From NCBI GenBank assembly GCA_964016885.1, contig OZ024755.1:32116001-32180000 (forward strand): a stretch of 64,000 nt of DNA, in the 5' to 3' direction. The translations under genes and the position numbers were made by a program. Of the stretch, positions 1-35,556 are shown piece after piece. The DNA is from Eledone cirrhosa (taxonomy: Eukaryota). The notes under the pieces are model-generated. The model saw nothing but the letters and a program-made list of their open reading frames with translations. It was not told where the DNA came from and ran no database searches. Within the stretch, counting starts at the first letter, position 1; each line of letters starts with the position of its first letter.

Positions 1-324
1 TTTTCAGCTCCAAAGGATGTCATATGAAACACTGCATGACATTGCTTCTGAAGTATTTAGCTTCATTAGTACGGTCTGTAAATAGTATATGGATAAAAGC
101 TGGAAGGTAAATTAATTTCAAATAGTATCAATTTTTCTTGTAAAAGCTAAACAATATAAACTTTCATGGGACGTTACTCTCTCATTTATATCTAACACTT
201 TAATTGCATCTCTCTCTGTATAACAGCCTATCTCTCTCCCTCTGTGTCTCTCTCTCTTTAGTCGTGTGTGTCTGTGTAGTTCTCGTGTTAAAACAATAAA
301 TATCTTTCTTTTTTTATATATAGA
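1..324 (-). mobile_element. Non-autonomous Helitron, partial copy (type B), 5' half cut by window edge
   Basis: Matches the 5' part of the repeated ~550-bp unit and ends in ...TATATAGA|T, which is A|TC on the minus strand. Confidence 0.8.
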
Positions 325-1306
325 TTACCTGATCTAGTATCAATTATTTTAAAGATATAGTTACTATTACCTGATCCAGTATCAGTTAAAGATGATATAG
401 TTATTATTGATTGATCTAGTATAAGTTATTTTAAAGATATATTTACTATTACCTGATCCAGTATCAGTAAAAGATGATATAGTTATTATTGGTTGATCTA
501 GTATAAGTTATTTTATAGATATATTTACTATTACCTGATCCAGTATCAGTAAAAGATGATATAGTTATTATTGGTTGATCTAGTATAAGTTATTTTAAAG
601 ATATATTTACTATTACCTTATCCAGTGTCAGTTAAAGATGATATAGTTATTATTGGTTGATCTAGTATAAGTTATTTTAAAGATATAGTTTCTATTACCT
701 GATCCAGTATCAGTTAAAGATGATATAGTTATTATTTGTTGATCTGGTATAAGTTATTTTAAAGATATATTTACTATTACCTGATCCAGTATCGGTTAAA
801 GATGATATAGTATTATTGGTTGATCTAGTATAAGTTATTTTAAAGATATAGTTACTATTACCTGATCCAGTATCAGTTAAAGATGATATAGTTATTATTG
901 GTTGATCTAGTATCAGTTATTTTAAAGATATAGTTACTATTACCTGATCCAGTATTGGTTAAAGATGATATAGTTATTATTGGTTGATCAGTTATTTTAA
1001 AGATATAGTTACTATTACCTGATCCAGTACCAGTTAAAGATGATATAGTTATTATTGGTTGATCTAGTATCAGTTATTTTAAAAATATAGTTAATATTAC
1101 CTGATCCAGTATCAGTTAAAGATGATAGTTATTATTGGTTGATCTAGTATAAGTTATTTTAAAGATATATTTACTATTACCTGATCCAGTATCGGTTATA
1201 GATGATATAGTTATTATTGGTTGATCTAGTAAGTTATTTTAATGTTTGATATAATTACAATTACCTAATCCAGTATTAGTTATTTTGAAGATTGACCTAG
1301 TTACTA

Positions 1307-1859
1307 CTAGCTGAGGTACCCGGCTTTGCTTGGGAGAATAGTTAAGAGAAGGTGGATAAAAGAAAAAAATGACTGTATTGGATATATAGGGCACGCGTTG
1401 AGGTCGTATTGTGACAAAAAAGATGAGAATAAAAATAAAAAAACTTCCTTATTAAGCTGTGGGAGTAAACTGCTGATTAAATCGTAGCATTGGCCTTGGG
1501 TTTTAAATGTGAAATAACCATAGTCAGTAAGATCTTTTTCAGCTCCAAAGGATGTCATATGAAACACTGCATAACATTGCTTCTGAAGTATTTAGCTTCA
1601 TTAGTACGGTCTGTAAGTAGTATATGGATAAAAGCTGGAAGGTATATTAATTTCAAATAGTATCAATTTTTCTTGTAAAAGCTAAACAATATAAACTTTC
1701 ATGGGACGTTACTCTCTCATTTATATCTAACACTTTAATTGCATCTCTCTCTGTATAACAGCCTATCTCCCTCCCTCTGTGTCTCTCTCTCTTTAGTTGT
1801 GTGTGTCTGTGTAGTTCTCGTGTTAAAACAATAAATATCTTTCTTACTTTATATATAGA
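1307..1859 (-). mobile_element. Non-autonomous Helitron, type A
   Basis: Minus strand reads A|TCTATATAT...CCCAAGCAAAGCCGGG-TACCTCAG-CTAG|T: 5'-TC, subterminal GC hairpin, 3'-CTAG, AT target, no TSD. Internal (CT)n/(GT)n microsatellite. Confidence 0.88.
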
Positions 1860-2278
1860 TTACCTGATCTAGTATCAGTTATTTTAAAGATATAGTTACT
1901 ATTACCTGATCCAGTATCAGTTAAAGATGATATAGTTATTATTGGTTGATCTAGTATAAGTTATTTTAAAGATATATTTACTATTACCTTATCCAGTGTC
2001 AGTTAAAGATGATATAGTTATTATAGGTTGATCTAGTATCAGTTATTTTAAAGATATAGTTACTATTACCTGATCTAGTATCAGTTAAAGATGATATAGT
2101 TATTATTGGTTGATGTAGTATAAGTTAATTCAAAGATATATTTACTATTACCGGATCCAGTATCGGTTAAAGATGATATAGTTATTATTGGTTGATCTAG
2201 TATCAGATATTTTAAAGTTTGATATAATTACAATTATCTAATCCAGTATTAGTTATTTTAAACATTGACATAGTTCTA

Positions 2279-2829
2279 CCAGCTGAGGTACCCGGCTTTG
2301 CCTGGGAGAATAGTTAAGAGAAGGCTGATAAAAGAAAAAAATGACTGAATTGGATATGTTGAGCATGGGTTGGTGCCGTAATGTGACAAAAAGTAGAGAA
2401 TAAAAATAAAAAACTTCAGTATTAAGCTGTGGGAGTAAACTGCTGATTAAATCGTAGCATTGGCCTTGGATTTTAAATGTGAAATAACTATAGTCAGTAA
2501 GATCTTTTTCAGCTCCAAAGGATGTCATATGAAACACTGCATGACATTGCTTCTGAAGTATTTAGCTTCATTAGTACGGTCTGTAAATAGTATATGGATA
2601 AAAGCTGGAAGGTAAATTAATTTCAAATAGTATCAATTTTTCTTGTAAAAGCTAAACAATATAAACTTTCATGGGACGTTACTCTCTCATTTATATCTAA
2701 CACTTTAATTGCATCTCTCTCTGTATAACAGCCTATCTCTCTCCCTCTGTGTCTCTCTCTCTTTAGTCGTGTGTGTCTGTGTAGTTCTCGTGTTAAAACA
2801 ATAAATATCTTTCTTTTTTTATATATAGA
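2279..2829 (-). mobile_element. Non-autonomous Helitron, type B
   Basis: Same unit with 3' end CTGG (fits CTRR) and hairpin CCCAGGC-AAA-GCCGGG. Confidence 0.85.
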
Positions 2830-3811
2830 TTACCTGATCTAGTATCAATTATTTTAAAGATATAGTTACTATTACCTGATCCAGTATCAGTTAAAGATGA
2901 TATAGTTATTATTGATTGATCTAGTATAAGTTATTTTAAAGATATATTTACTATTACCTGATCCAGTATCAGTAAAAGATGATATAGTTATTATTGGTTG
3001 ATCTAGTATAAGTTATTTTATAGATATATTTACTATTACCTGATCCAGTATCAGTAAAAGATGATATAGTTATTATTGGTTGATCTAGTATAAGTTATTT
3101 TAAAGATATATTTACTATTACCTTATCCAGTGTCAGTTAAAGATGATATAGTTATTATTGGTTGATCTAGTATAAGTTATTTTAAAGATATAGTTTCTAT
3201 TACCTGATCCAGTATCAGTTAAAGATGATATAGTTATTATTTGTTGATCTGGTATAAGTTATTTTAAAGATATATTTACTATTACCTGATCCAGTATCGG
3301 TTAAAGATGATATAGTATTATTGGTTGATCTAGTATAAGTTATTTTAAAGATATAGTTACTATTACCTGATCCAGTATCAGTTAAAGATGATATAGTTAT
3401 TATTGGTTGATCTAGTATCAGTTATTTTAAAGATATAGTTACTATTACCTGATCCAGTATTGGTTAAAGATGATATAGTTATTATTGGTTGATCAGTTAT
3501 TTTAAAGATATAGTTACTATTACCTGATCCAGTACCAGTTAAAGATGATATAGTTATTATTGGTTGATCTAGTATCAGTTATTTTAAAAATATAGTTAAT
3601 ATTACCTGATCCAGTATCAGTTAAAGATGATAGTTATTATTGGTTGATCTAGTATAAGTTATTTTAAAGATATATTTACTATTACCTGATCCAGTATCGG
3701 TTATAGATGATATAGTTATTATTGGTTGATCTAGTAAGTTATTTTAATGTTTGATATAATTACAATTACCTAATCCAGTATTAGTTATTTTGAAGATTGA
3801 CCTAGTTACTA

Positions 3812-4364
3812 CTAGCTGAGGTACCCGGCTTTGCTTGGGAGAATAGTTAAGAGAAGGTGGATAAAAGAAAAAAATGACTGTATTGGATATATAGGGCACG
3901 CGTTGAGGTCGTATTGTGACAAAAAAGATGAGAATAAAAATAAAAAAACTTCCTTATTAAGCTGTGGGAGTAAACTGCTGATTAAATCGTAGCATTGGCC
4001 TTGGGTTTTAAATGTGAAATAACCATAGTCAGTAAGATCTTTTTCAGCTCCAAAGGATGTCATATGAAACACTGCATGACATTGCTTCTGAAGTATTTAG
4101 CTTCATTAGTACGGTCTGTAAGTAGTATATGGATAAAAGCTGGAAGGTATATTAATTTCAAATAGTATCAATTTTTCTTGTAAAAGCTAAACAATATAAA
4201 CTTTCATGAGACGTTACTCTCTCATTTATATCTAACACTTTAATTGCATCTCTCTCTGTATAACAGCCTATCTCCCTCCCTCTGTGTCTCTCTCTCTTTA
4301 GTTGTGTGTGTCTGTGTAGTTCTCGTGTTAAAACAATAAATATCTTTCTTACTTTATATATAGA
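3812..4364 (-). mobile_element. Non-autonomous Helitron, type A
   Basis: Near-identical to 1307-1859. Confidence 0.85.
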
Positions 4365-5584
4365 TTACCTGATCTAGTATCAGTTATTTTAAAGATATAG
4401 TTACTATTACCTGATCCAGTATCAGTTAAAGATGATATAGTTATTATGGGTTGATCTAGTATCAGTTATTTTAAAGATATAGTTACTATTACCTGATCTA
4501 GTATCAGTTAAAGATGATATAGTTATTATTGGTTGATCTAGTATAAGTTATTTTAAAGATATAGTTTCTATTACCTGATCCAGTATCAGTTAAAGATGAT
4601 ATAGTTATTATTGGTTGATCTAGTATCAGTTATTTTAAAGATATATTTAATATTACCTTATCCAGTGTCAGTTAAAGATGATATAGTTATTATTGGTTGA
4701 TCTGGTATAAGTTATTTTAAAGATATATTTACTATTACCTGATTCAGTATCAGTTAAAGATGATATAGTTATTATTGGTTGATCAGTTATTTTAAAGATA
4801 TAGTTACTATTACCTGATCCAGTACCAGTTAAAGATGATATAGTTATTATTGGTTGATCTAGTATCAGTTATTTTAAAAATATAGTTACTATTATCTGAT
4901 CCAGTATCAGTTAAAGATGATAGTTATTATTGGTTGATCTAGTATAAGTTATTTTAAAGATATAGTTTCTATTACCTGATCCAGTATCAGTTAAAGATGA
5001 TATAGTTATTATTGGTTGATCTAGTATAAGTTATTTTAAAGATATATTTACTATTACCTGATCCAGTATCAGTAAAAGATGATATAGTTATTATTGGTTG
5101 ATCTAGTATAAGTTATTTTAAAGATATATTTACTATTACCTTATCCAGTGTCAGTTAAAGATGATATAGTTATTATTGGTTGATCTAGTATAAGTTATTT
5201 TAAAGATATAGTTTCTATTACCTGATCCAGTATCAGTTAAAGATGATATAGTTATTATTGGTTGATCAGTTATTTTAAAGATATAGTTACTATTACCTGA
5301 TCCAGTACCAGTTAAAGATGATATAGTTATTATTGGTTGATCTAGTATCAGTTATTTTAAAAATATAGTTACTATTACCTGATCCAGTATCAGTTAAAGA
5401 TGATAGTTATTATTGGTTGATCTAGTATAAGTTATTTTAAAGATATATTTACTATTACCTGATCCAGTATCGGTTATAGATGATATAGTTATTATTGGTT
5501 GATCTAGTAAGTTATTTTAATGTTTGATATAATTACAATTACCTAATCCAGTATTAGTTATTTTGAAGATTGACCTAGTTACTA

Positions 5585-6137
5585 CTAGCTGAGGTACCCG
5601 GCTTTGCTTGGGAGAATAGTTAAGAGAAGGTGGATAAAAGAAAAAAATGACTGTATTGGATATATAGGGCACGCGTTGAGGTCGTATTGTGACAAAAAAG
5701 ATGAGAATAAAAATAAAAAAACTTCCTTATTAAGCTGTGGGAGTAAACTGCTGATTAAATCGTAGCATTGGCCTTGGGTTTTGAATGTGAAATAACCATA
5801 GTCAGTAAGATCTTTTTCAGCTCCAAAGGATGTCATATGAAACACTGCATGACATTGCTTCTGAAGTATTTAGCTTCATTAGTACGGTCTGTAAGTAGTA
5901 TATGGATAAAAGCTGGAAGGTATATTAATTTCAAATAGTATCAATTTTTCTTGTAAAAGCTAAACAATATAAACTTTCATGGGACGTTACTCTCTCATTT
6001 ATATCTAACACTTTAATTGCATCTCTCTCTGTATAACAGCCTATCTCCCTCCCTCTGTGTCTCTCTCTCTTTAGTTGTGTGTGTCTGTGTAGTTCTCGTG
6101 TTAAAACAATAAATATCTTTCTTACTTTATATATAGA
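5585..6137 (-). mobile_element. Non-autonomous Helitron, type A
   Basis: Near-identical to 1307-1859. Confidence 0.85.
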
Positions 6138-6884
6138 TTACCTGATCTAGTATCAGTTATTTTAAAGATATAGTTACTATTACCTGATCCAGTATCAGTT
6201 AAAGATGATATAGTTATTATAGGTTGATCTAGTATCAGTTATTTTAAAGATATAGTTACTATTACCTGATCTAGTATCAGTTAAAGATGATATAGTTATT
6301 ATTGGTTGATCTAGTATAAGTTATTTTAAAGATATAGTTTCTATTACCTGATCCAGTATCAGTTAAAGATGATATAGTTATTATTGGTTGATCTAGTATA
6401 AGTTATTTTAAAGATATAGTTACTATTACCTGATCTAGTATCAGTTAAAGATGATATAGTTATTATTGGTTGATCTAGTATAAGTTATTTTAAAGATATA
6501 GTTTCTATTACCTGATCCAGTATCAGTTAAAGATGATATAGTTATTATTGGTTGATCTAGTATAAGTTATTTTATAGATATATTTACTATTACCTGATCC
6601 AGTATCAGTTAAAGATGATATAGTTATTATTGGTTGATCTGGTATAAGTTATTTTAAAGATATAGTTTCTATTACCTGATTCAGTATCAGTTAAAGATGA
6701 TATAGTTATTATTGGTTGATGTAGTATAAGTTAATTCAAAGATATATTTACTATTACCGGATCCAGTATCGGTTAAAGATGATATAGTTTTTATTGGTTG
6801 ATCTAGTATCAGATATTTTAAAGTTTGATATAATTACAATTATCTAATCCAGTATTAGTTATTTTAAAGATTGACATAGTTCTA

Positions 6885-7435
6885 CCAGCTGAGGTACCCG
6901 GCTTTGCCTGGGAGAATAGTTAAGAGAAGGCTGATAAAAGAAAAAAATGACTGAATTGGATATGTTGAGCATGGGTTGGTGCCGTAATGTGACAAAAAGT
7001 AGAGAATAAAAATAAAAAACTTCAGTATTAAGCTGTGGGAGTAAACTGCTGATTAAATCGTAGCATTGGCCTTGGATTTTAAATGTGAAATAACTATAGT
7101 CAGTAAGATCTTTTTCAGCTCCAAAGGATGTCATATGAAACACTGCATGACATTGCTTCTGAAGTATTTAGCTTCATTAGTACGGTCTGTAAATAGTATA
7201 TGGATAAAAGCTGGAAGGTAAATTAATTTCAAATAGTATCAATTTTTCTTGTAAAAGCTAAACAATATAAACTTTCATGGGACGTTACTCTCTCATTTAT
7301 ATCTAACACTTTAATTGCATCTCTCTCTGTATAACAGCCTATCTCTCTCCCTCTGTGTCTCTCTCTCTTTAGTCGTGTGTGTCTGTGTAGTTCTCGTGTT
7401 AAAACAATAAATATCTTTCTTTTTTTATATATAGA
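6885..7435 (-). mobile_element. Non-autonomous Helitron, type B
   Basis: Near-identical to 2279-2829. Confidence 0.85.
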
Positions 7436-8264
7436 TTACCTGATCTAGTATCAATTATTTTAAAGATATAGTTACTATTACCTGATCCAGTATCAGTTAA
7501 AGATGATATAGTTATTATTGATTGATCTAGTATAAGTTATTTTAAAGATATATTTACTATTACCTGATCCAGTATCAGTAAAAGATGATATAGTTATTAT
7601 TGGTTGATCTAGTATAAGTTATTTTATAGATATATTTACTATTACCTGATCCAGTATCAGTAAAAGATGATATAGTTATTATTGGTTGATCTAGTATAAG
7701 TTATTTTAAAGATATATTTACTATTACCTTATCCAGTGTCAGTTAAAGATGATATAGTTATTATTGGTTGATCTAGTATAAGTTATTTTAAAGATATATT
7801 TACTATTACCTGATTCAGTATCAGTTAAAGATGATATAGTTATTATTGGTTGATCTAGTATAAGTTATTTTAAAGATATATTTACTATTACCTGATTCAG
7901 TATAAGTTAAAGATGATATAGTTATTATTGGTTGATGTAGTATAAGTTATTTTAAAGATATAGTTTCTATTACCTGATCCAGTATCAGTTAAAGATGATA
8001 TAGTTATTATTGGTTGATCTGGTATAAGTTATTTTAAAGATATATTTACTATTACCTGATTCAGTATCAGTTAAAGATGATATAGTTATTATTGGTTGAT
8101 GTAGTATAAGTTAATTCAAAGATATATTTACTATTACCGGATCCAGTATCGGTTAAAGATGATATAGTTATTATTGGTTGATCTAGTATCAGATATTTTA
8201 AAGTTTGATATAATTACAATTATCTAATCCAGTATTAGTTATTTTAAAGATTGACATAGTTCTA

Positions 8265-8815
8265 CCAGCTGAGCTACCCGGCTTTGCCTGGGAGAATAGT
8301 TAAGAGAAGGCTGATAAAAGTAAAAAATGACTGAATTGGATATGTTGAGCATGGGTTGGTGCCGTAATGTGACAAAAAGTAGAGAATAAAAATAAAAAAC
8401 TTCAGTATTAAGCTGTGGGAGTAAACTGCTGATTAAATCGTAGCATTGGCCTTGGATTTTAAATGTGAAATAACTATAGTCAGTAAGATCTTTTTCAGCT
8501 CCAAAGGATGTCATATGAAACACTGCATGACATTGCTTCTGAAGTATTTAGCTTCATTAGTACGGTCTGTAAATAGCATATGGATAAAAGCTGGAAGGTA
8601 AATTAATTTCAAATAGTATCAATTTTTCTTGTAAAAGCTAAACAATATAAACTTTCATGGGACGTTACTCTCTCATTTATATCTAACACTTTAATTGCAT
8701 CTCTCTCTGTATAACAGCCTATCTCTCTCCCTCTGTGTCTCTCTCTCTTTAGTCGTGTGTGTCTGTGTAGTTCTCGTGTTAAAACAATAAATATCTTTCT
8801 TTTTTTATATATAGA
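8265..8815 (-). mobile_element. Non-autonomous Helitron, type B
   Basis: Near-identical to 2279-2829 with a few private substitutions. Confidence 0.85.
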
Positions 8816-9705
8816 TTACCTGATCTAGTATCAGTTATTTTAAAGATATAGTTACTATTACCTGATCCAGTATCGGTTAAAGATGATATAGTTATTATTG
8901 GTTGATCAGTTATTTTAAAGATATAGTTACTATTACCTGATCCAGTACCAGTTAAAGATGATATAGTTATTATTGGTTGATCTAGTATCAGTTATTTTAA
9001 AAATATAGTTACTATTACCTGATCCAGTATCAGTTAAAGATGATAGTTATTATTGGTTGATCTAGTATAAGTTATTTTAAAGATATAGTTTCTATTACCT
9101 GATCCAGTATCAGTTAAAGATGATATAGTTATTATTGGTTGATCTAGTATAAGTTATTTTAAAGATATATTTACTATTACCTGATCCAGTATCAGTAAAA
9201 GATGATATAGTTATTATTGGTTGATCTAGTATAAGTTATTTTAAAGATATATTTACTATTACCTTATCCAGTGTCAGTTAAAGATGATATAGTTATTATT
9301 GGTTGATCTAGTATGTTATTTTAAAGATATAGTTTCTATTACCTGATCCAGTATCAGTTAAAGATGATATAGTTATTATTGGTTGATCAGTTATTTTAAA
9401 GATATAGTTACTATTACCTGATCCAGTACCAGTTAAAGATGATATAGTTATTATTGGTTGATCTAGTATCAGTTATTTTAAAAATATAGTTACTATTACC
9501 TGATCCAGTATCAGTTAAAGATGATAGTTATTATTGGTTGAACTAGTATAAGTTATTTTAAAGATATATTTACTATTACCTGATTCAGTATCGGTTATAG
9601 ATGATATAGTTATTATTGGTTGATCTAGTAAGTTATTTTAATGTTTGATATAATTACAATTACCTAATCCAGTATTAGTTATTTTGAAGATTGACCTAGT
9701 TACTA

Positions 9706-10258
9706 CTAGCTGAGGTACCCGGCTTTGCTTGGGAGAATAGTTAAGAGAAGGTGGATAAAAGAAAAAAATGACTGTATTGGATATATAGGGCACGCGTTGA
9801 GGTCGTATTGTGACAAAAAAGATGAGAATAAAAATAAAAAAACTTCCTTATTAAGCTGTGGGAGTAAACTGCTGATTAAATCGTAGCATTGGCCTTGGGT
9901 TTTAAATGTGAAATAACCATAGTCAGTAAGATCTTTTTCAGCTCCAAAGGATGTCATATGAAACACTGCATGACATTGCTTCTGAAGTATTTAGCTTCAT
10001 TAGTACGGTCTGTAAGTAGTATATGGATAAAAGCTGGAAGGTATATTAATTTCAAATAGTATCAATTTTTCTTGTAAAAGCTAAACAATATAAACTTTCA
10101 TGGGACGTTACTCTCTCATTTATATCTAACACTTTAATTGCATCTCTCTCTGTATAACAGCCTATCTCCCTCCCTCTGTGTCTCTCTCTCTTTAGTTGTG
10201 TGTGTCTGTGTAGTTCTCGTGTTAAAACAATAAATATCTTTCTTACTTTATATATAGA
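9706..10258 (-). mobile_element. Non-autonomous Helitron, type A
   Basis: Near-identical to 1307-1859. Confidence 0.85.
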
Positions 10259-10923
10259 TTACCTGATCTAGTATCAGTTATTTTAAAGATATAGTTACTA
10301 TTACCTGATCCAGTATCAGTTAAAGATGATATAGTTATTATAGGTTGATCTAGTATCAGTTATTTTAAAGATATAGTTACTATTACCTGATCTAGTATCA
10401 GTTAAAGATGATATAGTTATTATTGGTTGATCTGGTATAAGTTATTTTAAAGATATAGTTTCTATTACCTGATCCAGTATCAGTTAAAGATGATATAGTT
10501 ATTATTGATTGATCTAGTATAAGTTATTTTAAAGATATATTTACTATTACCTGATCCAGTATCAGTAAAAGATGATATAGTTATTATTGGTTGATGTAGT
10601 ATAAGTTATTTTAAAGATATAGTTTCTATTACCTGATCCAGTATCAGTTAAAGATGATATAGTTATTATTGGTTGATCTGGTATAAGTTATTTTAAAGAT
10701 ATATTTACTATTACCTGATTCAGTATCAGTTAAAGATGATATAGTTATTATTGGTTGATGTAGTATAAGTTAATTCAAAGATATATTTACTATTACCGGA
10801 TCCAGTATCGGTTAAAGATGATATAGTTATTATTGGTTGATCTAGTATCAGATATTTTAAAGTTTGATATAATTACAATTATCTAATCCAGTATTAGTTA
10901 TTTTAAAGATTGACATAGTTCTA

Positions 10924-11474
10924 CCAGCTGAGGTACCCGGCTTTGCCTGGGAGAATAGTTAAGAGAAGGCTGATAAAAGAAAAAAATGACTGAATTGGAT
11001 ATGTTGAGCATGGGTTGGTGCCGTAATGTGACAAAAAGTAGAGAATAAAAATAAAAAACTTCAGTATTAAGCTGTGGGAGTAAACTGCTGATTAAATCGT
11101 AGCATTGGCCTTGGATTTTAAATGTGAAATAACTATAGTCAGTAAGATCTTTTTCAGCTCCAAAGGATGTCATATGAAACACTGCATGACATTGCTTCTG
11201 AAGTATTTAGCTTCATTAGTACGGTCTGTAAATAGTATATGGATAAAAGCTGGAAGGTAAATTAATTTCAAATAGTATCAATTTTTCTTGTAAAAGCTAA
11301 ACAATATAAACTTTCATGGGACGTTACTCTCTCATTTATATCTAACACTTTAATTGCATCTCTCTCTGTATAACAGCCTATCTCTCTCCCTCTGTGTCTC
11401 TCTCTCTTTAGTCGTGTGTGTCTGTGTAGTTCTCGTGTTAAAACAATAAATATCTTTCTTTTTTTATATATAGA
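10924..11474 (-). mobile_element. Non-autonomous Helitron, type B
   Basis: Near-identical to 2279-2829. Confidence 0.85.
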
Positions 11475-12784
11475 TTACCTGATCTAGTATCAATTATTTT
11501 AAAGATATAGTTTACTATTACCTGATCCAGTATCAGTTAAAGATGATATAGTTATTATTGATTGATCTAGTATAAGTTATTTTAAAGATATATTTACTAT
11601 TACCTGATCCAGTATCAGTAAAAGATGATATAGTTATTATTGGTTGATCTAGTATAAGTTATTTTATAGATATATTTACTATTACCTGATCCAGTATCAG
11701 TAAAAGATGATATAGTTATTATTGGTTGATCTAGTATAAGTTATTTTAAAGATATATTTACTATTACCTTATCCAGTGTCAGTTAAAGATGATATAGTTA
11801 TTATTGGTTGATCTAGTATAAGTTATTTTAAAGATATATTTACTATTACCTGATTCAGTATCAGTTAAAGATGATATAGTTATTATTGGTGATCTAGTAT
11901 AAGTTATTTTAAAGATATATTTACTATTACCTGATTCAGTATCAGTTAAAGATGATATAGTTATTATTGGTTGATGTAGTATAAGTTATTTTAAAGATAT
12001 AGTTTCTATTACCTGATCCAGTATCAGTTAAAGATGATATAGTTATTATTGGTTGATCTGGTATAAGTTATTTTAAAGATATATTTACTATTACCTGATT
12101 CAGTATCAGTTAAAGATGATATAGTTATTATTGGTTGATGTAGTATAAGTTATTTTAAAGATATAGTTTCTATTACCTGATCCAGTATCAGTTAAAGATG
12201 ATATAGTTATTATTGGTTGATCTGGTATAAGTTATTTTAAAGATATATTTACTATTACCTGATCCAGTATCGGTTAAAGATGATATAGTATTATTGGTTG
12301 ATCTAGTATAAGTTATTTTAAAGATATAGTTACTATTACCTGATCCAGTATCAGTTAAAGATGATATAGTTATTATTGGTTGATCTAGTATCAGTTATTT
12401 TAAAGATATAGTTACTATTACCTGATCCAGTATTGGTTAAAGATGATATAGTTATTATTGGTTGATCAGTTATTTTAAAGATATAGTTACTATTACCTGA
12501 TCCAGTACCAGTTAAAGATGATATAGTTATTATTGGTTGATCTAGTATCAGTTATTTTAAAAATATAGTTAATATTACCTGATCCAGTATCAGTTAAAGA
12601 TGATAGTTATTATTGGTTGATCTAGTATAAGTTATTTTAAAGATATATTTACTATTACCTGATCCAGTATCGGTTATAGATGATATAGTTATTATTGGTT
12701 GATCTAGTAAGTTATTTTAATGTTTGATATAATTACAATTACCTAATCGAGTATTAGTTATTTTGAAGATTGACCTAGTTACTA

Positions 12785-13337
12785 CTAGCTGAGGTACCCG
12801 GCTTTGCTTGGGAGAATAGTTAAGAGAAGGTGGATAAAAGAAAAAAATGACTGTATTGGATATATAGGGCACGCGTTGAGGTCGTATTGTGACAAAAAAG
12901 ATGAGAATAAAAATAAAAAAACTTCATTATTAAGCTGTGGGAGTAAACTGCTGATTAAATCGTAGCATTGGCCTTGGGTTTTAAATGTGAAATAACCATA
13001 GTCAGTAAGATCTTTTTCAGCTCCAAAGGATGTCATATGAAACACTGCATGACATTGCTTCTGAAGTATTTAGCTTCATTAGTACGGTCTGTAAGTAGTA
13101 TATGGATAAAAGCTGGAAGGTATATTAATTTCAAATAGTATCAATTTTTCTTGTAAAAGCTAAACAATATAAACTTTCATGAGACGTTACTCTCTCATTT
13201 ATATCTAACACTTTAATTGCATCTCTCTCTGTATAACAGCCTATCTCCCTCCCTCTGTGTCTCTCTCTCTTTAGTTGTGTGTGTCTGTGTAGTTCTCGTG
13301 TTAAAACAATAAATATCTTTCTTTTTTTATATATAGA
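12785..13337 (-). mobile_element. Non-autonomous Helitron, type A' (A body, B-like 5' end)
   Basis: Type A with CTTCATT variant and T-run terminus instead of TTACTTT. Confidence 0.85.
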
Positions 13338-24676: not shown

Positions 24677-24766
24677 GGTTGATCTAGTATCAGTTATTTT
24701 AAAGTTTGATATAATTACAATTACCTAATCCAGTATTAGTTATTTTAAAGATTAACATAGTTACTA

Positions 24767-25317
24767 CTAGCTGAGGTACCCGGCTATGCCTGGGAGAATA
24801 GTTAAGAGAAGGCGGATAAAAGAAAAAAATGACTGTATTGGATATGTTGAGCATGCGTTGGGGCCGTAATGTGACGAAAAATTTGAGAATAAAAATAAAA
24901 AACTTCCTTATTAAGCTGTGGGAGTAAACTGCTGATTAAATCGTAGCATTGGCCTTGGGTTTTAAATGTGAAATAACCATAGTCAGTAAAATCTTTTTCA
25001 GCTCCAAAGGATGTCATATGAAACACTGCATAACATTGCTTCTGAAGTATTTAGCGTCATTAGTACGGTCTGTAAGTAGTATATGGATAAAAGCTGGAAG
25101 GTAAATTAATTTCAAATAGTATCAATTTTTCTTGTAAAAGCTAAACAATATAAACTTTCATGGGACGTTACTCTCTCACTGAATATCTAACACTTTAATT
25201 GTATCTCTCTCTGTATAACGGTCTATCTCTCTTCCTCTGTGTCTCTCTCTGTAGTTGTGTGTGTGTGTGTAGTTCTCGTGTGAAAACAATGAACATCTCT
25301 CTTTATTTATATATAGA
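24767..25317 (-). mobile_element. Non-autonomous Helitron, diverged type E
   Basis: TC...CTAG termini; hairpin loop variant (plus strand CCCGGC-TAT-GCCTGGG). Confidence 0.83.
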
Positions 25318-26709
25318 TTACCTGATCTAGTATCAGTTATTTTAAAGATATAGTTACTATTACCTGATCCAGTATCAGTTAAAGATGATATAGTTATTAT
25401 TGGTTAATCTAGTATCAGTTATTTTAAAAATATAGTTACTATTACCTGATCTAGTATCAGTTAAAGATGATATAGTTATTATTGATTGATCTAGTATAAG
25501 TTATTTTAAAGATATATTTACTATTACCTGATCCAGTATCAGTAAAAGATGATATAGTTATTATTGGTTGATCTAGTATAAGTTATTTTATAGATATATT
25601 TACTATTACCTGATCCAGTATCAGTAAAAGATGATATAGTTATTATTGGTTGATCTAGTATAAGTTATTTTAAAGATATATTTACTATTACCTTATCCAG
25701 TGTCAGTTAAAGATGATATAGTTATTATTGGTTGATCTAGTATAAGTTATTTTAAAGATATATTTACTATTACCTGATTCAGTATCAGTTAAAGATGATA
25801 TAGTTATTATTGGTTGATCTAGTATAAGTTATTTTAAAGATATATTTACTATTACCTGATTCAGTATCAGTTAAAGATGATATAGTTATTATTGGTTGAT
25901 GTAGTATAAGTTATTTTAAAGATATAGTTTCTATTACCTGATCCAGTATCAGTTAAAGATGATATAGTTATTATTGGTTGATCTGGTATAAGTTATTTTA
26001 AAGATATATTTACTATTACCTGATTCAGTATCAGTTAAAGATGATATAGTTATTATTGGTTGATGTAGTATAAGTTATTTTAAAGATATAGTTTCTATTA
26101 CCTGATCCAGTATCAGTTAAAGATGATATAGTTATTATTGGTTGATCTGGTATAAGTTATTTTAAAGATATATTTACTATTACCTGATCCAGTATCGGTT
26201 AAAGATGATATAGTATTATTGGTTGATCTAGTATAAGTTATTTTAAAGATATAGTTACTATTACCTGATCCAGTATCAGTTAAAGATGATATAGTTATTA
26301 TTGGTTGATCTAGTATCAGTTATTTTAAAGATATAGTTACTATTACCTGATCCAGTATTGGTTAAAGATGATATAGTTATTATTGGTTGATCAGTTATTT
26401 TAAAGATATAGTTACTATTACCTGATCCAGTACCAGTTAAAGATGATATAGTTATTATTGGTTGATCTAGTATCAGTTATTTTAAAAATATAGTTAATAT
26501 TACCTGATCCAGTATCAGTTAAAGATGATAGTTATTATTGGTTGATCTAGTATAAGTTATTTTAAAGATATATTTACTATTACCTGATCCAGTATCGGTT
26601 ATAGATGTTATAGTTATTATTGGTTGATCTAGTAAGTTATTTTAATGTTTGATATAATTACAATTACCTAATCCAGTATTAGTTATTTTGAAGATTGACC
26701 TAGTTACTA

Positions 26710-27262
26710 CTAGCTGAGGTACCCGGCTTTGCTTGGGAGAATAGTTAAGAGAAGGTGGATAAAAGAAAAAAATGACTGTATTGGATATATAGGGCACGCG
26801 TTGAGGTCGTATTGTGACAAAAAAGATGAGAATAAAAATAAAAAAACTTCATTATTAAGCTGTGGGAGTAAACTGCTGATTAAATCGTAGCATTGGCCTT
26901 GGGTTTTAAATGTGAAATAACCATAGTCAGTAAGATCTTTTTCAGCTCCAAAGGATGTCATATGAAACACTGCATGACATTGCTTCTGAAGTATTTAGCT
27001 TCATTAGTACGGTCTGTAAGTAGTATATGGATAAAAGCTGGAAGGTATATTAATTTCAAATAGTATCAATTTTTCTTGTAAAAGCTAAACAATATAAACT
27101 TTCATGAGACGTTACTCTCTCATTTATATCTAACACTTTAATTGCATCTCTCTCTGTATAACAGCCTATCTCCCTCCCTCTGTGTCTCTCTCTCTTTAGT
27201 TGTGTGTGTCTGTGTAGTTCTCGTGTTAAAACAATAAATATCTTTCTTTTTTTATATATAGA
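26710..27262 (-). mobile_element. Non-autonomous Helitron, type A'
   Basis: Near-identical to 12785-13337. Confidence 0.85.
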
Positions 27263-27927
27263 TTACCTGATCTAGTATCAGTTATTTTAAAGATATAGTT
27301 ACTATTACCTGATCCAGTATCAGTTAAAGATGATATAGTTATTATAGGTTGATCTAGTATCAGTTATTTTAAAGATATAGTTACTATTACCTGATCTAGT
27401 ATCAGTTAAAGATGATATAGTTATTATTGGTTGATCTGGTATAAGTTATTTTAAAGATATAGTTTCTATTACCTGATCCAGTATCAGTTAAAGATGATAT
27501 AGTTATTATTGATTGATCTAGTATAAGTTATTTTAAAGATATATTTACTATTACCTGATCCAGTATCAGTAAAAGATGATATAGTTATTATTGGTTGATG
27601 TAGTATAAGTTATTTTAAAGATATAGTTTCTATTACCTGATCCAGTATCAGTTAAAGATGATATAGTTATTATTGGTTGATCTGGTATAAGTTATTTTAA
27701 AGATATATTTACTATTACCTGATTCAGTATCAGTTAAAGATGATATAGTTATTATTGGTTGATGTAGTATAAGTTAATTCAAAGATATATTTACTATTAC
27801 CGGATCCAGTATCGGTTAAAGATGATATAGTTATTATTGGTTGATCTAGTATCAGATATTTTAAAGTTTGATATAATTACAATTATCTAATCCAGTATTA
27901 GTTATTTTAAAGATTGACATAGTTCTA

Positions 27928-28478
27928 CCAGCTGAGGTACCCGGCTTTGCCTGGGAGAATAGTTAAGAGAAGGCTGATAAAAGAAAAAAATGACTGAATT
28001 GGATATGTTGAGCATGGGTTGGTGCCGTAATGTGACAAAAAGTAGAGAATAAAAATAAAAAACTTCAGTATTAAGCTGTGGGAGTAAACTGCTGATTAAA
28101 TCGTAGCATTGGCCTTGGGTTTTAAATGTGAAATAACTATAGTCAGTAAGATCTTTTTCAGCTCCAAAGGATGTCATATGAAACACTGCATGACATTGCT
28201 TCTGAAGTATTTAGCTTCATTAGTACGGTCTGTAAATAGTATATGGATAAAAGCTGGAAGGTAAATTAATTTCAAATAGTATTAATTTTTCTTGTAAAAG
28301 CTAAACAATATAAACTTTCATGGGACGTTACTCTCTCATTTATATCTAACACTTTAATTGCATCTCTCTCTGTATAACAGCCTATCTCTCTCCCTCTGTG
28401 TCTCTCTCTCTTTAGTCGTGTGTGTCTGTGTAGTTCTCGTGTTAAAACAATAAATATCTTTCTTTTTTTATATATAGA
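27928..28478 (-). mobile_element. Non-autonomous Helitron, type B (with A-type CCTTGGG site)
   Basis: Matches 17246-17796 (offset 10682). Confidence 0.85.
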
Positions 28479-29551
28479 TTACCTGATCTAGTATCAGTTA
28501 TTTTTAAGATATAGTTACTATTACCTGATCCAGTATCAGTTAAAGATGATATAGTTATTATTGATTGATCTAGTATAAGTTATTTTAAAGATATATTTAC
28601 TATTACCTGATTCAGTATCAGTTAAAGATGATATAGTTATTATTGGTTGATGTAGTATAAGTTATTTTAAAGATATAGTTTCTATTACCTGATCCAGTAT
28701 CAGTTAAAGATGATATAGTTATTATTGGTTGATCTAGTATAAGTTATTTTAAAGATATAGTTTCTATTACCTGATCCAGTATCAGTTAAAGATGATATAG
28801 TTATTATTGGTTGATCTAGTATAAGTTATTTTAAAGATATATTTACTATTACCTGATTCAGTATCAGTTAAAGATGATATAGTTATTATTGGTTGATGTA
28901 GTATAAGTTATTTTAAAGATATAGTTTCTATTACCTGATCCAGTATCAGTTAAAGATGATATAGTTATTATTGGTTGATCTGGTATAAGTTATTTTAAAG
29001 ATATATTTACTATTACCTGATTCAGTATCAGTTAAAGATGATATAGTTATTATTGATTGATCTAGTATAAGTTATTTTAAAGATATATTTACTATTACCT
29101 GATCCAGTATCAGTAAAAGATGATATAGTTATTATTGGTTGATATAGTATAAGTTATTTTAAAGATATATTTACTATTACCTGATCCAGTATCAGTAAAA
29201 GATGATATAGTTATTATTGGTTGATCTAGTATGTTATTTTAAAGATATATTTACTATTACCTTATCCAGTTTCAGTTAAAGATGATATAGTTATTATTGG
29301 TTGATCTAGTATAAGTTATTTTAAAGATATATTTACTATTACCTGATCCAGTATCAGTAAAAGATGATATAGTTATTATTGGTTGATCTAGTATAAATTA
29401 TTTTAAAGATATATTTACTATTACCTTATCCAGTGTCAGTTAAAGATGATATAGTTATTATTGGTTGATCTGGTATCAGATATTTTAAAGTTTGATATAA
29501 TTACAATTATCTAATCCAGTATTAGTTATTTTAAAGATTGACATAGTTCTA

Positions 29552-30102
29552 CCAGCTGAGGTACCCGGCTTTGCCTGGGAGAATAGTTAAGAGAAGGCTG
29601 ATAAAAGAAAAAAATGACTGAATTGGATATGTTGAGCATGGGTTGGTGCCGTAATGTGACAAAAAGTAGAGAATAAAAATAAAAAACTTCAGTATTAAGC
29701 TGTGGGAGTAAACTGCTGATTAAATCGTAGCATTGGCCTTGGATTTTAAATGTGAAATAACTATAGTCAGTAAGATCTTTTTCAGCTCCAAAGGATGTCA
29801 TATGAAACACTGCATGACATTGCTTCTGAAGTATTTAGCTTCATTAGTACGGTCTGTAAATAGTATATGGATAAAAGCTGGAAGGTAAATTAATTTCAAA
29901 TAGTATCAATTTTTCTTGTAAAAGCTAAACAATATAAACTTTCATGGGACGTTACTCTCTCATTTATATCTAACACTTTAATTGCATCTCTCTCTGTATA
30001 ACATCCTATCTCTCTCCCTCTGTGTCTCTCTCTCTTTAGTCGTGTGTGTCTGTGTAGTTCTCGTGTTAAAACAATAAATATCTTTCTTTTTTTATATATA
30101 GA
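29552..30102 (-). mobile_element. Non-autonomous Helitron, type B
   Basis: Matches 18870-19420 (offset 10682). Confidence 0.85.
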
Positions 30103-31013
30103 TTACCTGATCTAGTATCAGTTATTTTAAAGATATAGTTACTATTACCTGATCCAGTATCAGTTAAAGATGATATAGTTATTATTGATTGATCTAGTAT
30201 AAGTTATTTTAAAGATATATTTACTATTACCTGATCCAGTATCAGTTAAAGATGATATAGTTATTATTGATTGATCTAGTATAAGTTATTTTAAAGATAT
30301 ATTTACTATTACCTGATCCAGTATCAGTAAAAGATGATATAGTTATTATTGGTTGATCTAGTATAAGTTATTTTATAGATATATTTACTATTACCTGATC
30401 CAGTATCAGTAAAAGATGATATAGTTATTATTGGTTGATCTAGTATAAGTTATTTTAAAGATATATTTACTATTACCTTATCCAGTGTCAGTTAAAGATG
30501 ATATAGTTATTATTGGTTGATCTAGTATAAGTTATTTTAAAGATATATTTACTATTACCTGATTCAGTATCAGTTAAAGATGATATAGTTATTATTGGTT
30601 GATGTAGTATAAGTTATTTTAAAGATATATTTACTATTACCTTATCCAGTATCAGTAAAAGATGATATAGTTATTATTGGTTGATCTAGTATAAGTTATT
30701 TTAAAGATATATTTACTATTACCTGATCCAGTATCAGTTAAAGATGATATAGTTATTATTGGTTGATGTAGTATAAGTTAATTCAAAGATATATTTACTA
30801 TTACGGGATCCAGTATCAGTAAAAGATGATACAGTTATTATTGGTTGATCTAGTATAAGTTATTTTAAAGATATATTTACTATTACCTTATCCAGTGTCA
30901 GTTAAAGATGATATAGTTATTATTGGTTGATCTAGTATCAGTTATTTTAAAGTTTGATATAATTACAATTACCTAATCCAGTATTAGTTATTTTGAAGAT
31001 TGACATAGTTCTA

Positions 31014-31566
31014 CCAGCTGAGGTACCCGGCTTTGCCTGGGAGAATAGTTAAGAGAAGGCGGATAAAAAAAAAAAAATGATTGTATTGGATATGTTGAGC
31101 ACGCGTTGGGGCCGTAATGTGACAAAAAAGAAGAGAATAAAAATAAAAAACTTCCTTATTAAGCTGTGTGAGTAAACTGCTGATTAAATCGTAGCATTGG
31201 CCTTGGATTTTAAATGTGAAATAACCATAGTCAGTAAGATCTTTTTCAGCTCTAAAGGATGTCATATGAAACACTGCATAACATTGCTTCTGAAGTATTT
31301 GGCTTCATTAGTACGGTCTGTAAGTAGTATATGGATAAAAGCTGGAAGGTAAATTAATTTCAAATAGTATCAATTTTTCTTGTAAAAGCTAAACAATATT
31401 AACTTTCATGGGACGTTACTCTCTCACTGAATATCTAACACTTTAATTGTATCTCTCTCTGTATAACGGCCTATGTCTCTCCCTCTGTGTCACTCACTCT
31501 GTAGTTGTGTGTGTGTGTAGTTCTCGGGTGAAAACAATAAACATCTCTCTTTTTTTTATATATAGA
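31014..31566 (-). mobile_element. Non-autonomous Helitron, type C
   Basis: Counterpart of 20974-21524. Confidence 0.83.
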
Positions 31567-31904
31567 TTACCTGATCTAGTATCAGTTATTTTAAAGATAT
31601 AGTTACTATTACCTGATCCAGTATCAGTTAAAGATGATATAGTTATTATTGGTTGATCTAGTATAAGTTATTTTAAAGATATAGTTACTATTACCTGATC
31701 CAGTATCGGTTAAAGATGATATAGTTATTATTGGTTGATCTAGTATAAGTTATTTTAAAGATATAGTTAATATTACCTGATCCAGTATCAGTTAAAGATG
31801 ATATAGTTATTATTGGTTGATCTAGTATCAGTTATTTTAAAGTGTGATATACTTACAATTACCTAATCCAGTTTTAGTTATTTTAAAGATTGACATAGTT
31901 ACTA

Positions 31905-32440
31905 CTAGCTGAGGGACCCGGCTTTGCCTGGGAGAATAGTTAAAAGAAGAAAATGACTGTATTGGATATGTTGAGCACGCGTTGAGGTCGTAATGTAACA
32001 AAAAAGAAGAGAATAAAAATAAAAAAACTTCCTTATTAAGCTGTGGGAGTAAACTGCTGATTAAATCGTAGCATTGGCCTTGGGTTTTAAATGTGAAATA
32101 ACCATAGTCAGTAAAATCTTTTTCAGCTCCAAAGGATGTTATATGAAACACTGCATAACATTACTTCTGAAGTATTTAGTTTCATAGTATGGTCTGTAAG
32201 TAGTATATGGATAAAAGCTGGAAGGTAAATTAATTTCAAATAGTATCAATTTTTCTTGTAAAAGCTAAACAATATAAACTTTCATGGGACGTTACTCTCT
32301 CATTTATATCTAACACTTTAATTGTATCTCTCTCTGTTTAATGGCCTATCTCTCTTCCTCTGTCTCTCTCTCTCTAGTTGTGTGTGTGTGTGTAGTTCTC
32401 GTGTGAAAACAATAAACATCTCTCTTTTTTTATATATAGA
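31905..32440 (-). mobile_element. Non-autonomous Helitron, type D
   Basis: Counterpart of 21781-22316. Confidence 0.83.
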
Positions 32441-32887
32441 TTACCTGATTTAGTATCAGTTATTTGAAAGATATAGTTACTATTACCTGATCTAGTATCA
32501 GTTAAAGATGATATAGTTATTATTGGTTGATCTAGTATCAGTTATTTTAAAGATATAGTAACTATTACCTGATCCAGTATCAGTTATTTTAAAGATATAT
32601 TTACTATTACCTGATCCAGTATCAGTTAAAGATGATATAGTTATTATTGGTTGATCTAGTATCAGTTATTTTAAAGATATAGTTAATATTACTTATCTAG
32701 TATCAGTTAAAGATATAGTTCTTATTGGTTGATCTAGTATCAGTTATTTTAAAGATATAGTTAATATTACCTGATCCAGTATCAGTTAAAGATATAGTTC
32801 TTATTGGTTGATCTAGTATCAGTTATTTTAAAGATGTAGTTACTATTACCTGATCCAGTATCAGTTAAAGATGATATAGTTACTATT

Positions 32888-34915
32888 GTAACTATACAAG
32901 TCGTACAGAATGGGGTTGTTCCGAAGGAATGGCGTAGCCGCATCATCGTTAACTGCTATAAGGGAAAAGGAGATGCCCTAGATAGGAGTAACTATAGAGG
33001 CATTAAATTAATCGACCAGGTCATGAAGGTCACGGAAAAAGTAATAGCGCAACTAATCAGAGAGAGAATTGATCTAGATGAAATGCAGTTCGGGTTTGTG
33101 TCAGGCAAAAGTACCACAGACGCTCTTTTCATTGTACGACAACTACAGGAGAAGTACATAGCTAAAAGTAAACCCCTATACTTAGCTTTCGTCGACTTGG
33201 AGAAAGCCTTCGACAGAGTCCCCCGTTCCATTATCTGGTGGTCTCTTAGAAAACTAGGTGTTGACAAATGGCTTGTGAGAGCTATACAAGCTATGTATAA
33301 AGAAACAGTCAGTAAGGTTAGAATTAACAACGAATATAGTGAAGAGTTTAGCGTAAAAGTTGGTGTCCATCAGGGCTCTGTTCTTAGCCCCCTACTATTT
33401 ATTATTGCCCTTCAGGCTATAACAGAGGAGTTCAAGACCGGCTGCCCATGGGAACTCCTATACGCAGATGATCTAACGCTCATAGCTGAATCAATGACCG
33501 AACTAGAGAAGAAATTCCAAACGTGGAAGCACGGCCTAGAATCAAAAGGCCTTAAAATTAACCTGGCTAAGACTAAAGTTCTAGTTTGTAGGAAAGAAAA
33601 TAAGGCGGCGGTCCCATCGGGGAAATGGCCATGCTCAGTGTGTAGGAAAGGCGTAGGTAGAAACTCCATTTTATGTCCCAAATGCAAAGTATGGGTGCAT
33701 AAAAGATGTAGTGGGATCACAGGTAAGCTAACTAAGAACATAGATTTTACATGTGGCCGGTGCTCTGGTGCAATAAGTAGCAGCAAGTGCCCACAAAATA
33801 CTAGCTCCTTCAACTGCGCAGAGGGTTCTATAGAAATAGTGGACAGCTTCCGTTATCTGGGTGACAAAATCAGCAGTGGGGGAGGGTGCTCTGAAAGTAC
33901 AGTAGCTAGAGTCAGAACTGGATGGAAAAAGTTCAGAGAGCTTATACCACTATTAGCCGCTAGAGGGTTCTCCCTAAAAATGAAAGGCAGGTTATACGAT
34001 GCCTGCATACGAACAGCAATGCTGCATGGCAGTGAGACCTGGGCATTGTGTGCAGAGGATATACGCAGACTAGAGAGGAACGAAGCTTGCATGCTCCGCT
34101 GGATGTGCAATAGTAATATACGTGAACGGCAAAGCATAAACGAACTAAGGAAAACATTAGAAATAAGAGGGATCAGATGTTGTTTACTCGAGAGAAGGCT
34201 ACGTTGGTACGGTCACGTGATGCGCATGAAAGACGACAGCTGTATAACAAAGTGCAGGGCAATAAAGATAGACGGTAGCCACGGAGTAGGCAGACCCAGA
34301 AAAACATGGGACGAGCTGATAAATTCCGACCTCACACGCTTACACCTCTCCAAGACAATGTCACTGGACCGAGACCTTTGGCGGTACTCAGTAATAGAGA
34401 AGACCCGCCTTACCTAAATACAAAGTAAAAACCTACTACAGTCAGTAGGCATCTCTATCAAAACACACCCCCGTCCCACCACCTCCACCCCACCCACACC
34501 GCCCCTTTCAATGTAAAGTTATGTTGGTGCCGAAACAAATGAGATCGTGTAGGTGTCACGACAAAAAACACACAGTCCACGCTGTAAATGTGGCCGTGTA
34601 GGCAACACGGTAAAAACCTCCCAGCCCCACACTGTAAATGTGGTTGGTGTTAGGAAGGGCATCCAGCTGTAGAAAACCCGCCAGACAGTCCACGCTGTAA
34701 TGTGGCCGTGTAGGCAACACGGTAAAAACCTCCCAGCCCCACACTGTAAATGTGGTTGGTGTTAGGAAGGGCATCCAACTGTAGAAAACCCGCCAGACAG
34801 TCCAATGCGAGCAAGACAACCACTCTTGCCTCAAGTGGGAAAACCCCCGTCCAAACCCATGCAAGCGTGGAACACGGACGCTAAACCTGATGATGATGAT
34901 GATGATGATGATGAT
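32888..34915 (+). mobile_element. 5'-truncated RTE-type LINE, copy 2 (duplicate of copy 1)
   Basis: Same 5' truncation point and same satellite junctions as 22767-24676. Has an extra ~112-bp 3' UTR unit and a (TGA)9 tail. Confidence 0.92.
33023..34417 (+). CDS. LINE reverse transcriptase with internal PHD finger, copy 2 (N-truncated)
   Basis: 464-aa ORF that differs from copy 1 at two residues (KYLAK/KYIAK, VDEW/VDKW). Confidence 0.9.
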   Translation: MKVTEKVIAQLIRERIDLDEMQFGFVSGKSTTDALFIVRQLQEKYIAKSKPLYLAFVDLEKAFDRVPRSIIWWSLRKLGVDKWLVRAIQAMYKETVSKVRINNEYSEEFSVKVGVHQGSVLSPLLFIIALQAITEEFKTGCPWELLYADDLTLIAESMTELEKKFQTWKHGLESKGLKINLAKTKVLVCRKENKAAVPSGKWPCSVCRKGVGRNSILCPKCKVWVHKRCSGITGKLTKNIDFTCGRCSGAISSSKCPQNTSSFNCAEGSIEIVDSFRYLGDKISSGGGCSESTVARVRTGWKKFRELIPLLAARGFSLKMKGRLYDACIRTAMLHGSETWALCAEDIRRLERNEACMLRWMCNSNIRERQSINELRKTLEIRGIRCCLLERRLRWYGHVMRMKDDSCITKCRAIKIDGSHGVGRPRKTWDELINSDLTRLHLSKTMSLDRDLWRYSVIEKTRLT

Positions 34916-35005
34916 GGTTGATCTAGTATCAGTTATTTTAAAGTTTGATATAATTACAATTACCTAATCCAGTATTAGTTATTTTAAAGATTAACATAGT
35001 TACTA

Positions 35006-35556
35006 CTAGCTGAGGTACCCGGCTATGCCTGGGAGAATAGTTAAGAGAAGGCGGATAAAAGAAAAAAATGACTGTATTGGATATGTTGAGCATGCGTTGG
35101 GGCCGTAATGTGACGAAAAATTTGAGAATAAAAATAAAAAACTTCCTTATTAAGCTGTGGGAGTAAACTGCTGATTAAATCGTAGCATTGGCCTTGGGTT
35201 TTAAATGTGAAATAACCATAGTCAGTAAAATCTTTTTCAGCTCCAAAGGATGTCATATGAAACACTGCATAACATTGCTTCTGAAGTATTTAGCGTCATT
35301 AGTACGGTCTGTAAGTAGTATATGGATAAAAGCTGGAAGGTAAATTAATTTCAAATAGTATCAATTTTTCTTGTAAAAGCTAAACAATATAAACTTTCAT
35401 GGGACGTTACTCTCTCACTGAATATCTAACACTTTAATTGTATCTCTCTCTGTATAACGGTCTATCTCTCTTCCTCTGTGTCTCTCTCTGTAGTTGTGTG
35501 TGTGTGTGTAGTTCTCGTGTGAAAACAATGAACATCTCTCTTTATTTATATATAGA
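35006..35556 (-). mobile_element. Non-autonomous Helitron, type E (last copy)
   Basis: Counterpart of 24767-25317. Confidence 0.83.

Follow-up and report, generated by a model that had tools for sequence, protein, structure and literature searches.

A Helitron as the probable passenger of a single-locus composite macrosatellite in Eledone cirrhosa

The window analysed here comprises 64,000 nucleotides of the Eledone cirrhosa genome (contig OZ024755.1, positions 32,116,001 to 32,180,000, forward strand) and contains one half of an array in which a short Helitron alternates with blocks of a satellite. With window 1307-1859 as blastn query, 24 copies of the Helitron unit were found in window 1-35556, all on the same strand. 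The 23 whole copies measure 536-553 bp, and copy 1, which is clipped by the window edge, is complete upstream. The spacers between the copies consist of 82-bp satellite monomers, each composed of a 42- and a 40-bp half, and are 256-1,392 bp long, which agrees with the variable-length satellite blocks described in the original prediction. Two spacers carrying the insertion of a long interspersed nuclear element (LINE) measure 2,450 and 2,565 bp, and the last satellite block, after copy 24, comprises 1,404 bp. The whole array measures 74 kb: it begins ~36.9 kb to the left of the window, terminates at window position 36953 and includes 51 3' ends of the Helitron as well as 44 5' ends that could be called. 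It lies on contig C15, and one assembly of the 3.0 Gb genome was searched. As outlined below, the array very probably results from one old Helitron insertion into a local minisatellite, followed by in-place expansion by unequal exchange, forming a composite macrosatellite at a single locus. The features are as follows (window coordinates).

1..36953: half of the composite array (Helitron plus 82-bp satellite) lying in the window; runs on ~36.9 kb leftward
1..324, minus strand: Helitron copy 1, type B, 5' part, the rest upstream (blastn)
1222..1306, plus strand: decayed satellite monomer of 85-87 bp, present after every 3' end, here as the example at copy 2
1307..1859, minus strand: Helitron copy 2, type A, CTAG end, weak hairpin, reference unit (blastn and end inspection)
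1445..1570, minus strand: broken N-terminal RepHel remnant in copy 2, at the same place in other copies (tblastn; Pfam of the matching open reading frame, ORF)
1860..1946, plus strand: first monomer at the TC end; joined with the opposite flank it gives an uninterrupted satellite subunit at A^T
2279..2829, minus strand: Helitron copy 3, type B, CTGG end
3812..4364, minus strand: Helitron copy 4, type A
5585..6137, minus strand: Helitron copy 5, type A
6885..7435, minus strand: Helitron copy 6, type B
8265..8815, minus strand: Helitron copy 7, type B
9706..10258, minus strand: Helitron copy 8, type A
10924..11474, minus strand: Helitron copy 9, type B
12785..13337, minus strand: Helitron copy 10, type A body with a B-like 5' tip
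14003..14553, minus strand: Helitron copy 11, type B
15864..16416, minus strand: Helitron copy 12, type A body with a B-like 5' tip, like copy 10
17246..17796, minus strand: Helitron copy 13, type B
18870..19420, minus strand: Helitron copy 14, type B
20004..20554, minus strand: Helitron copy 15, type B
20974..21524, minus strand: Helitron copy 16, third type, CTGG end
21781..22316, minus strand: Helitron copy 17, fourth type, 536 bp
22770..24676, plus strand: 5'-truncated LINE within satellite, with an open frame of 508 amino acids, matches to RVT_1 and PHD and a (GAT)n tail
24767..25317, minus strand: Helitron copy 18, fifth type
25318..26709, plus strand: chimeric spacer of the ~10.2-kb duplication; its first two monomers resemble the last block and the remainder resembles the spacer at 14554
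26710..27262, minus strand: Helitron copy 19, like copies 10 and 12
27928..28478, minus strand: Helitron copy 20, type B
29552..30102, minus strand: Helitron copy 21, type B
31014..31566, minus strand: Helitron copy 22, partner of copy 16
31905..32440, minus strand: Helitron copy 23, partner of copy 17
32891..34915, plus strand: second copy of the LINE insertion, with 4 differences in 1,907 aligned bases and a 112-bp internal duplication
35006..35556, minus strand: Helitron copy 24, identical to copy 18
35557..36953, plus strand: last satellite block, with 17 monomers, which closes the array on the right

On the minus strand, all 24 copies in the window start with AGGTAA|TC, and the 23 3' ends present comprise 11 of CTAG and 12 of CTGG, each with T as the next base. 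Array-wide, CTAG or CTGG was found at 50 of the 51 3' ends (13 of the 51 being CTGG) and CTAC at one. A hairpin of 16 nt terminates 8 nt ahead of CTRG, and rejoining the flanks yields a satellite subunit, corresponding to an A^T target without duplication. The marks on which the Helitron was originally recognised, i.e. TC, the hairpin 8 nt from the end, CTAG or CTGG and A^T, are all present in the window copies, and the satellite indeed lies outside the element, beyond its TC and CTRG ends. Helentrons have subterminal inverted repeats and a T^T target, whereas the array ends are TC/CTRG at A^T. The folding energy of the hairpin was calculated as -3.5 kcal/mol for the main array form and -0.7 kcal/mol, i.e. 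almost unfolded, for 8 of the 51 ends. For the 16-mer hairpin of the commonest dispersed form it was -4.4 kcal/mol, and the array hairpins are 1-3 G-to-A changes away from this form, with a weaker fold. The statement that the termini still fit the rule in all subtypes therefore holds for the rule itself, but since the termini have drifted from the commonest dispersed form and 8 of 51 hairpins are near failure, it is no sign of selection or activity.

The interior of the unit encodes an N-terminal piece of RepHel, which showed 49-51% identity over 37-43 amino acids to RepHel ORFs of this genome (tblastn; E-values of 6e-6 to 4e-4 in the 200-kb set), while a longer relative reached E-values down to 1e-16. 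One of the matching frames, with 1,718 residues, comprises STPR, Helitron_like_N and PIF1 domains according to Pfam. A genome-wide search for the 3'-end pattern with 1 mismatch resulted in 239 matches, 45 in the array region and 194 elsewhere, and the reversed pattern used as control gave 0 matches. From the matches elsewhere 43 loci were inspected, namely 3 from the initial search, 20 near the form of the array and 20 of the commonest form. All 43 end in CTAG, a motif contained in the search pattern itself, and all 43 are followed by T, including the 40 for which the pattern did not impose this base. The 5' end could be called in 27 of the 43 copies (16 not called); it is preceded by A in 25 of these 27 and starts with TC in 23. 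Solo copies at AT sites, which the original prediction had proposed to look for, are thus found outside the array. Since dispersed solo copies share the ends of the unit and the unit contains a RepHel remnant, the Helitron call is supported, and judged by these sequence features the unit is a real non-autonomous Helitron, descended from a RepHel-coding element. The dispersed copies are mutually 75-90% alike, and the array unit differs from two of them at 67-73 of ~525 and at 86-96 of ~548 sites (13-18%), for which reason the family looks old.

An autonomous element with the ends of this family was found at none of the 20 long RepHel loci examined (of 150 listed and 3,704 candidates), and no Rep/Hel core lies upstream of the family 3' end at any of the 43 dispersed loci. 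The search for an autonomous parent, which covered loci matching Pfam PF14214 as well as the 43 loci of the family and also used the longer remnant as query, yielded no element that combines these ends with a Rep/Hel core. Apart from this, near-identical Helitron_like_N matches recur every ~100-150 kb on one strand in four regions (C20:3.5-5.2 Mb, C27:13.0-15.5 Mb, C19:35-40 Mb and C16:0.5-0.8 Mb), a spacing that would fit a very large tandem unit with a Helitron in it.

Each of the 51 3' ends in the array is adjoined by the decayed monomer of 85-87 bp, which is unlike the ordinary monomer. At the other side, a common satellite flank was found at 41 of the 44 called 5' ends and a LINE fragment at the remaining 3. 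Since the decayed flank is common to all 3' ends and the rejoined flanks restore a satellite subunit, the copies share a single site, and it is likely from the sequence that the Helitron inserted once, at an A^T of a local 40/42-bp minisatellite. Moreover, the flank TAGAACTA stands beside 13 of 13 CTGG ends and 0 of 26 other ends, and a variant 87 columns beyond TC occurs in 9 of 11 type-B units compared to 0 of 28 others.

While the 24 copies in the window do share one strand, as had been noted, the array part left of the window contains three inverted blocks, so that the single orientation does not extend to the whole array. These blocks are three copies of one inverted block, at ~31.6-29.3, 10.9-8.5 and 6.8-4.6 kb left of the window, each of which ends within Helitron bodies and carries an ~800-bp LINE 3' fragment at a TC junction. 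The term head-to-tail likewise applies to the orientation of the copies but not to their contact, because the copies never abut: the 74-kb array contains 0 CTRG|TC junctions. Its left edge consists of an irregular run of 40-45-bp subunits, followed by a divergent Helitron copy (L037:3520-3958), the internal deletions of which differ from those of the 553-bp unit and which retains pieces of the dispersed family that the 553-bp unit lost. One may regard this copy as the remnant of an originally longer founder.

Five tandem duplications could be resolved in the array. In three of them (2,983 bp, 2,525 bp and ~10.2 kb, the latter with the LINE), the middle spacer is chimeric, i.e. it begins as the right partner and finishes as the left one, and the switch points are located inside the satellite, at least 167 bp past TC and at least 170 bp before CTAG. 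The LINE, putatively of the RTE type, was co-duplicated with its block, its two copies showing 4 differences in 1,907 bases, and LINE-carrying duplications are nested in the array. The second LINE copy alone shows a 112-bp tandem duplication in its 3' untranslated part (window 34572-34804). Breakpoints lying all inside satellite DNA, in the absence of composites and circles, had been named as an outcome that would favour plain unequal crossing-over; three of five breakpoints and the lack of composites (see below) agree with this outcome, while the windows of the other two duplications include a Helitron end, so that the agreement is extensive but incomplete.

Among 39 units, 35 distinct haplotypes were found. 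When these 35 were compared, the four-gamete test was violated by 299 of 2,278 pairs of sites within the Helitron, where 13 of the 17 minimum recombination intervals are located as well. Site incompatibility was lowest across TC (0.04), compared to 0.11 inside the Helitron and 0.12 across CTAG, which is the opposite of a hotspot at TC.

The original prediction further proposed that the TC of one copy and the CTRR of a downstream copy define a composite Helitron, and that the array is a substrate for Rep/Hel-driven amplification and dispersal. A composite that had moved would carry the satellite and the deletion junction of the array unit. In the genome-wide search, all matches to a satellite 35-mer (92 of 92) and to a 27-mer with 1 mismatch (313 of 313) are inside the array, and so are all 50 matches to the deletion junction with 2 mismatches. 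Furthermore, no satellite was found in the DNA inspected around each of the 43 dispersed family copies. Since both sequences are confined to the array, there is no indication of dispersal, and the two satellite patterns together with the derivative-specific pattern revealed no Helitron-satellite-Helitron composite outside the array in this assembly. The idea that the satellite belongs to a larger mobile element was also discarded: the left flank is single-copy over ~320 bp, with 38 candidates scored out of 864, and copies of the repeat bordering the right end are found elsewhere that lack the satellite.

A different picture was obtained for a sister Helitron family with RepHel-coding members, which shows 82 exact CTAG|TCTATA junctions genome-wide, none of them on C15. 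In all 12 junctions inspected, a second element begins at the junction, i.e. the elements are truly head-to-tail, and 3 are at least trimers. These dimers and trimers mostly consist of deleted units of 0.85-1.1 kb and offer a good system for the study of Helitron concatemers. Two CTAG|TCTATA matches carry the 3' end of the array family itself, and no family copy follows either junction. Since the sister family displays head-to-tail Helitron products in this genome, their lack in the array argues against a rolling circle.

Sequencing reads support the junction between satellite and Helitron. In a second study, three other samples were subjected to restriction-site-associated DNA sequencing (RAD-seq); their reads extend across decayed flank and CTAG end at 40-160-fold coverage and contain several array-type haplotypes. 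Because reads of other samples span it, this junction is no assembly artefact; the read support applies to the junction, and the exact copy number is that of the assembly. In the contigs of another run set, each run showed 40-52 loose ends where the CTAG end meets flanks that differ from one another, a pattern expected of dispersed insertions. In 7 short-read runs no CTAG-TC joint was listed, with low power at the TC end. A contig joint in runs X1-X3, from 1918 back to 1277, is not CTAG-TC and may represent a short-spacer unit, while run X4 contained dispersed-type pieces only and is uninformative on the array.

From these data we infer a single founding insertion, an order of events and exchange as the copying process. 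A Helitron longer than the present unit would have inserted once at A^T into a young local 40/42-bp minisatellite. An early duplication of Helitron and satellite would have been followed by internal deletions, then by growth of the 82-mer between the copies, and later by LINE insertions and inversions. The recent duplications of 2.5-10 kb would then originate from out-of-register exchange, or from template switching, together with slippage, and the Helitron would have been a passenger. Between exchange and replication template switching, both of which are host processes, the data do not discriminate.

Several observations weigh against this explanation. The crossover window of the 3,079-bp duplication comprises 86 bp, 12 of them inside and 74 outside TC, and that of the 2,505-bp duplication reaches from 48 bp beyond the CTAG end to a point 266 bp within the element. 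These are the two youngest, perfect duplications, 100% identical over 3,165 and 2,819 bp, respectively. Since the two windows made no new junction and exchange is expected in identical stretches, their weight is limited. Within the Helitron, distance has little effect on incompatibility (r 0.045, permutation p 0.08), and given this weak, non-significant upward trend a part of the incompatibility may be caused by recurrent mutation. The different internal deletions of the left-edge copy could also mean a second insertion, and collapsed or unassembled satellite would escape the search of one assembly. Finally, a 3' end of the sister type, with 75-76% similarity over 77 nt, is present at 3 of the 20 RepHel-coding loci. 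Since RepHel-coding elements with a similar 3' end are present in the genome, the enzyme may have been available.

Such an enzyme could have driven local growth through nicks at TC, either by release from TC to TC as Helitron plus spacer or by exchange seeded at the nick. TC-to-TC units would leave no new junction, the window of the 3,079-bp duplication includes TC, some hairpins are weak, and the copies keep their 5' ends, the 5' end being essential in the bat element according to PMC4778049. On the other hand, TC is excluded from 4 of the 5 resolvable windows, the linkage across TC is kept (9 of 11 vs 0 of 28) with the lowest incompatibility there, and released circles should land elsewhere too, whereas no such landing was found in the genome. 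This explanation is considered improbable, and the same applies to its more specific form, in which RepHel of the sister family nicks the TC ends of the array and drives a part of the local expansion without a new junction.

Still less probable is a composite Helitron that spreads as a rolling circle and takes satellite and LINE along; for this assembly the idea is by now refuted for the most part. In the bat element, terminator bypass and 3' transduction were demonstrated (PMC4778049), and the dimers and trimers of the sister family at 82 places show that tandem products do arise in this genome. Nonetheless, the array contains no CTRG|TC junction and one and the same flank, instead of new ones, at the 51 3' ends, 3 of 5 switches lie in satellite, satellite and derivative are confined to the array (313 of 313 and 50 of 50), no Rep/Hel core lies upstream of the 3' end at the 43 family loci, and none of the 20 long RepHel loci has the ends of the family. 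Many independent insertions at one preferred A^T of the satellite monomer are most unlikely. Target preference leads to tandem dimers in Drosophila (PMC5932611), and the deletions of the left-edge copy do differ, but the copies share a decayed 85-87-bp flank instead of an ordinary monomer, variants of flank and element go together, and the derivative has no donor copy outside the array, by which this possibility is refuted for the 553-bp copies. Equally remote is the explanation of the array, or of its most perfect repeats, as an assembly artefact. It would account for the two perfectly identical duplications, whereas 35 of 39 unit haplotypes are distinct and the flank/CTAG junction is crossed by reads from three other samples, which contain several array-type haplotypes. 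Altogether, one old insertion with subsequent in-place expansion is preferred.

Other repeats were noted next to the array. An abundant dispersed repeat starts at the right end of the array (window 36959-37456 and beyond; 3,717 candidates, 86-90% alike). Window 40927-41598 contains a GGT/GAT-rich tandem repeat with periods of 39-45 and 123 and then a (CAC)n run on the opposite strand. An unrelated 71-bp satellite occupies window 41987-64000 and continues for ~57 kb past the window end; this satellite of ~79 kb comprises 9 blocks with 8 orientation switches, including two short inverted blocks of 623 bp each.

The array provides a tidy example of a transposon inside a satellite that turned into a part of the repeat unit. 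At the same time it is a caution and a test case, since a long series of Helitron ends that look intact gives no evidence of amplification by rolling circle. The genome offers both situations side by side, the passenger array without CTAG|TC junctions and the sister family with 82 of them. If nicking at TC did take place, it would link RepHel to satellite growth, with a dead Helitron growing a host satellite; a link of this kind was proposed in reviews (PMC12628747), and sequence alone cannot show it here. Among literature titles, none was found that concerns this locus or a Helitron amplified together with a satellite as the constant part of its unit, which is weak evidence, as supplements and subscription papers were not included.

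The closest known cases are Drosophila arrays. One insertion was multiplied with the R1 array (fw, ~18 copies), where the shared site was read as duplication (PMC5932611), and the transposon insertions G5 and Doc5 were co-amplified in the tandem array Rsp (PMC5411766). Like these, the present array shows an insertion multiplied with the array, a shared insertion site and inversions inside the array. Unlike in these descriptions, the insertion is present in nearly every unit and determines the period of the repeat, the element carried along is a Helitron whose ends look intact, and the locus is small (74 kb) and single. Human composites, for example teucer-ajax in TELO_Comp, were ascribed to unequal crossing over, most of them being on one chromosome (10.1101/2021.07.12.451456). 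They share with our array the tandem alternation of a fixed unit with a satellite block of variable length, but are defined by at least three repeat types, whereas the core unit here comprises two, or three in five LINE-bearing blocks, and its fixed part is a whole Helitron.

With Helraiser (PMC4778049) the unit shares the 5'-TC and 3'-CTAG termini, a subterminal hairpin, an A^T target that is not duplicated and an interior derived from RepHel, while the hairpin is 8 nt from the end instead of 11 and 13 of 51 ends are CTGG. A further difference is that the derivative shows no copy outside its array. Tandem Helitron arrays attributed to rolling circles consist of abutting copies, often with many 5' ends and one 3' end (Xiong et al. 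2016 as summarised in PMC12628747; PMC7492417). The present array resembles them in its many same-strand copies in a row, but with 44 called 5' ends and 51 3' ends the numbers are about equal and the copies never abut. Helentron and HINE elements likewise combine a Helitron-type element and a satellite at one locus; in the oyster elements described in the same sources the repeats are enclosed by the two ends and dispersed along with the element, whereas here the satellite lies outside the ends, at one locus.

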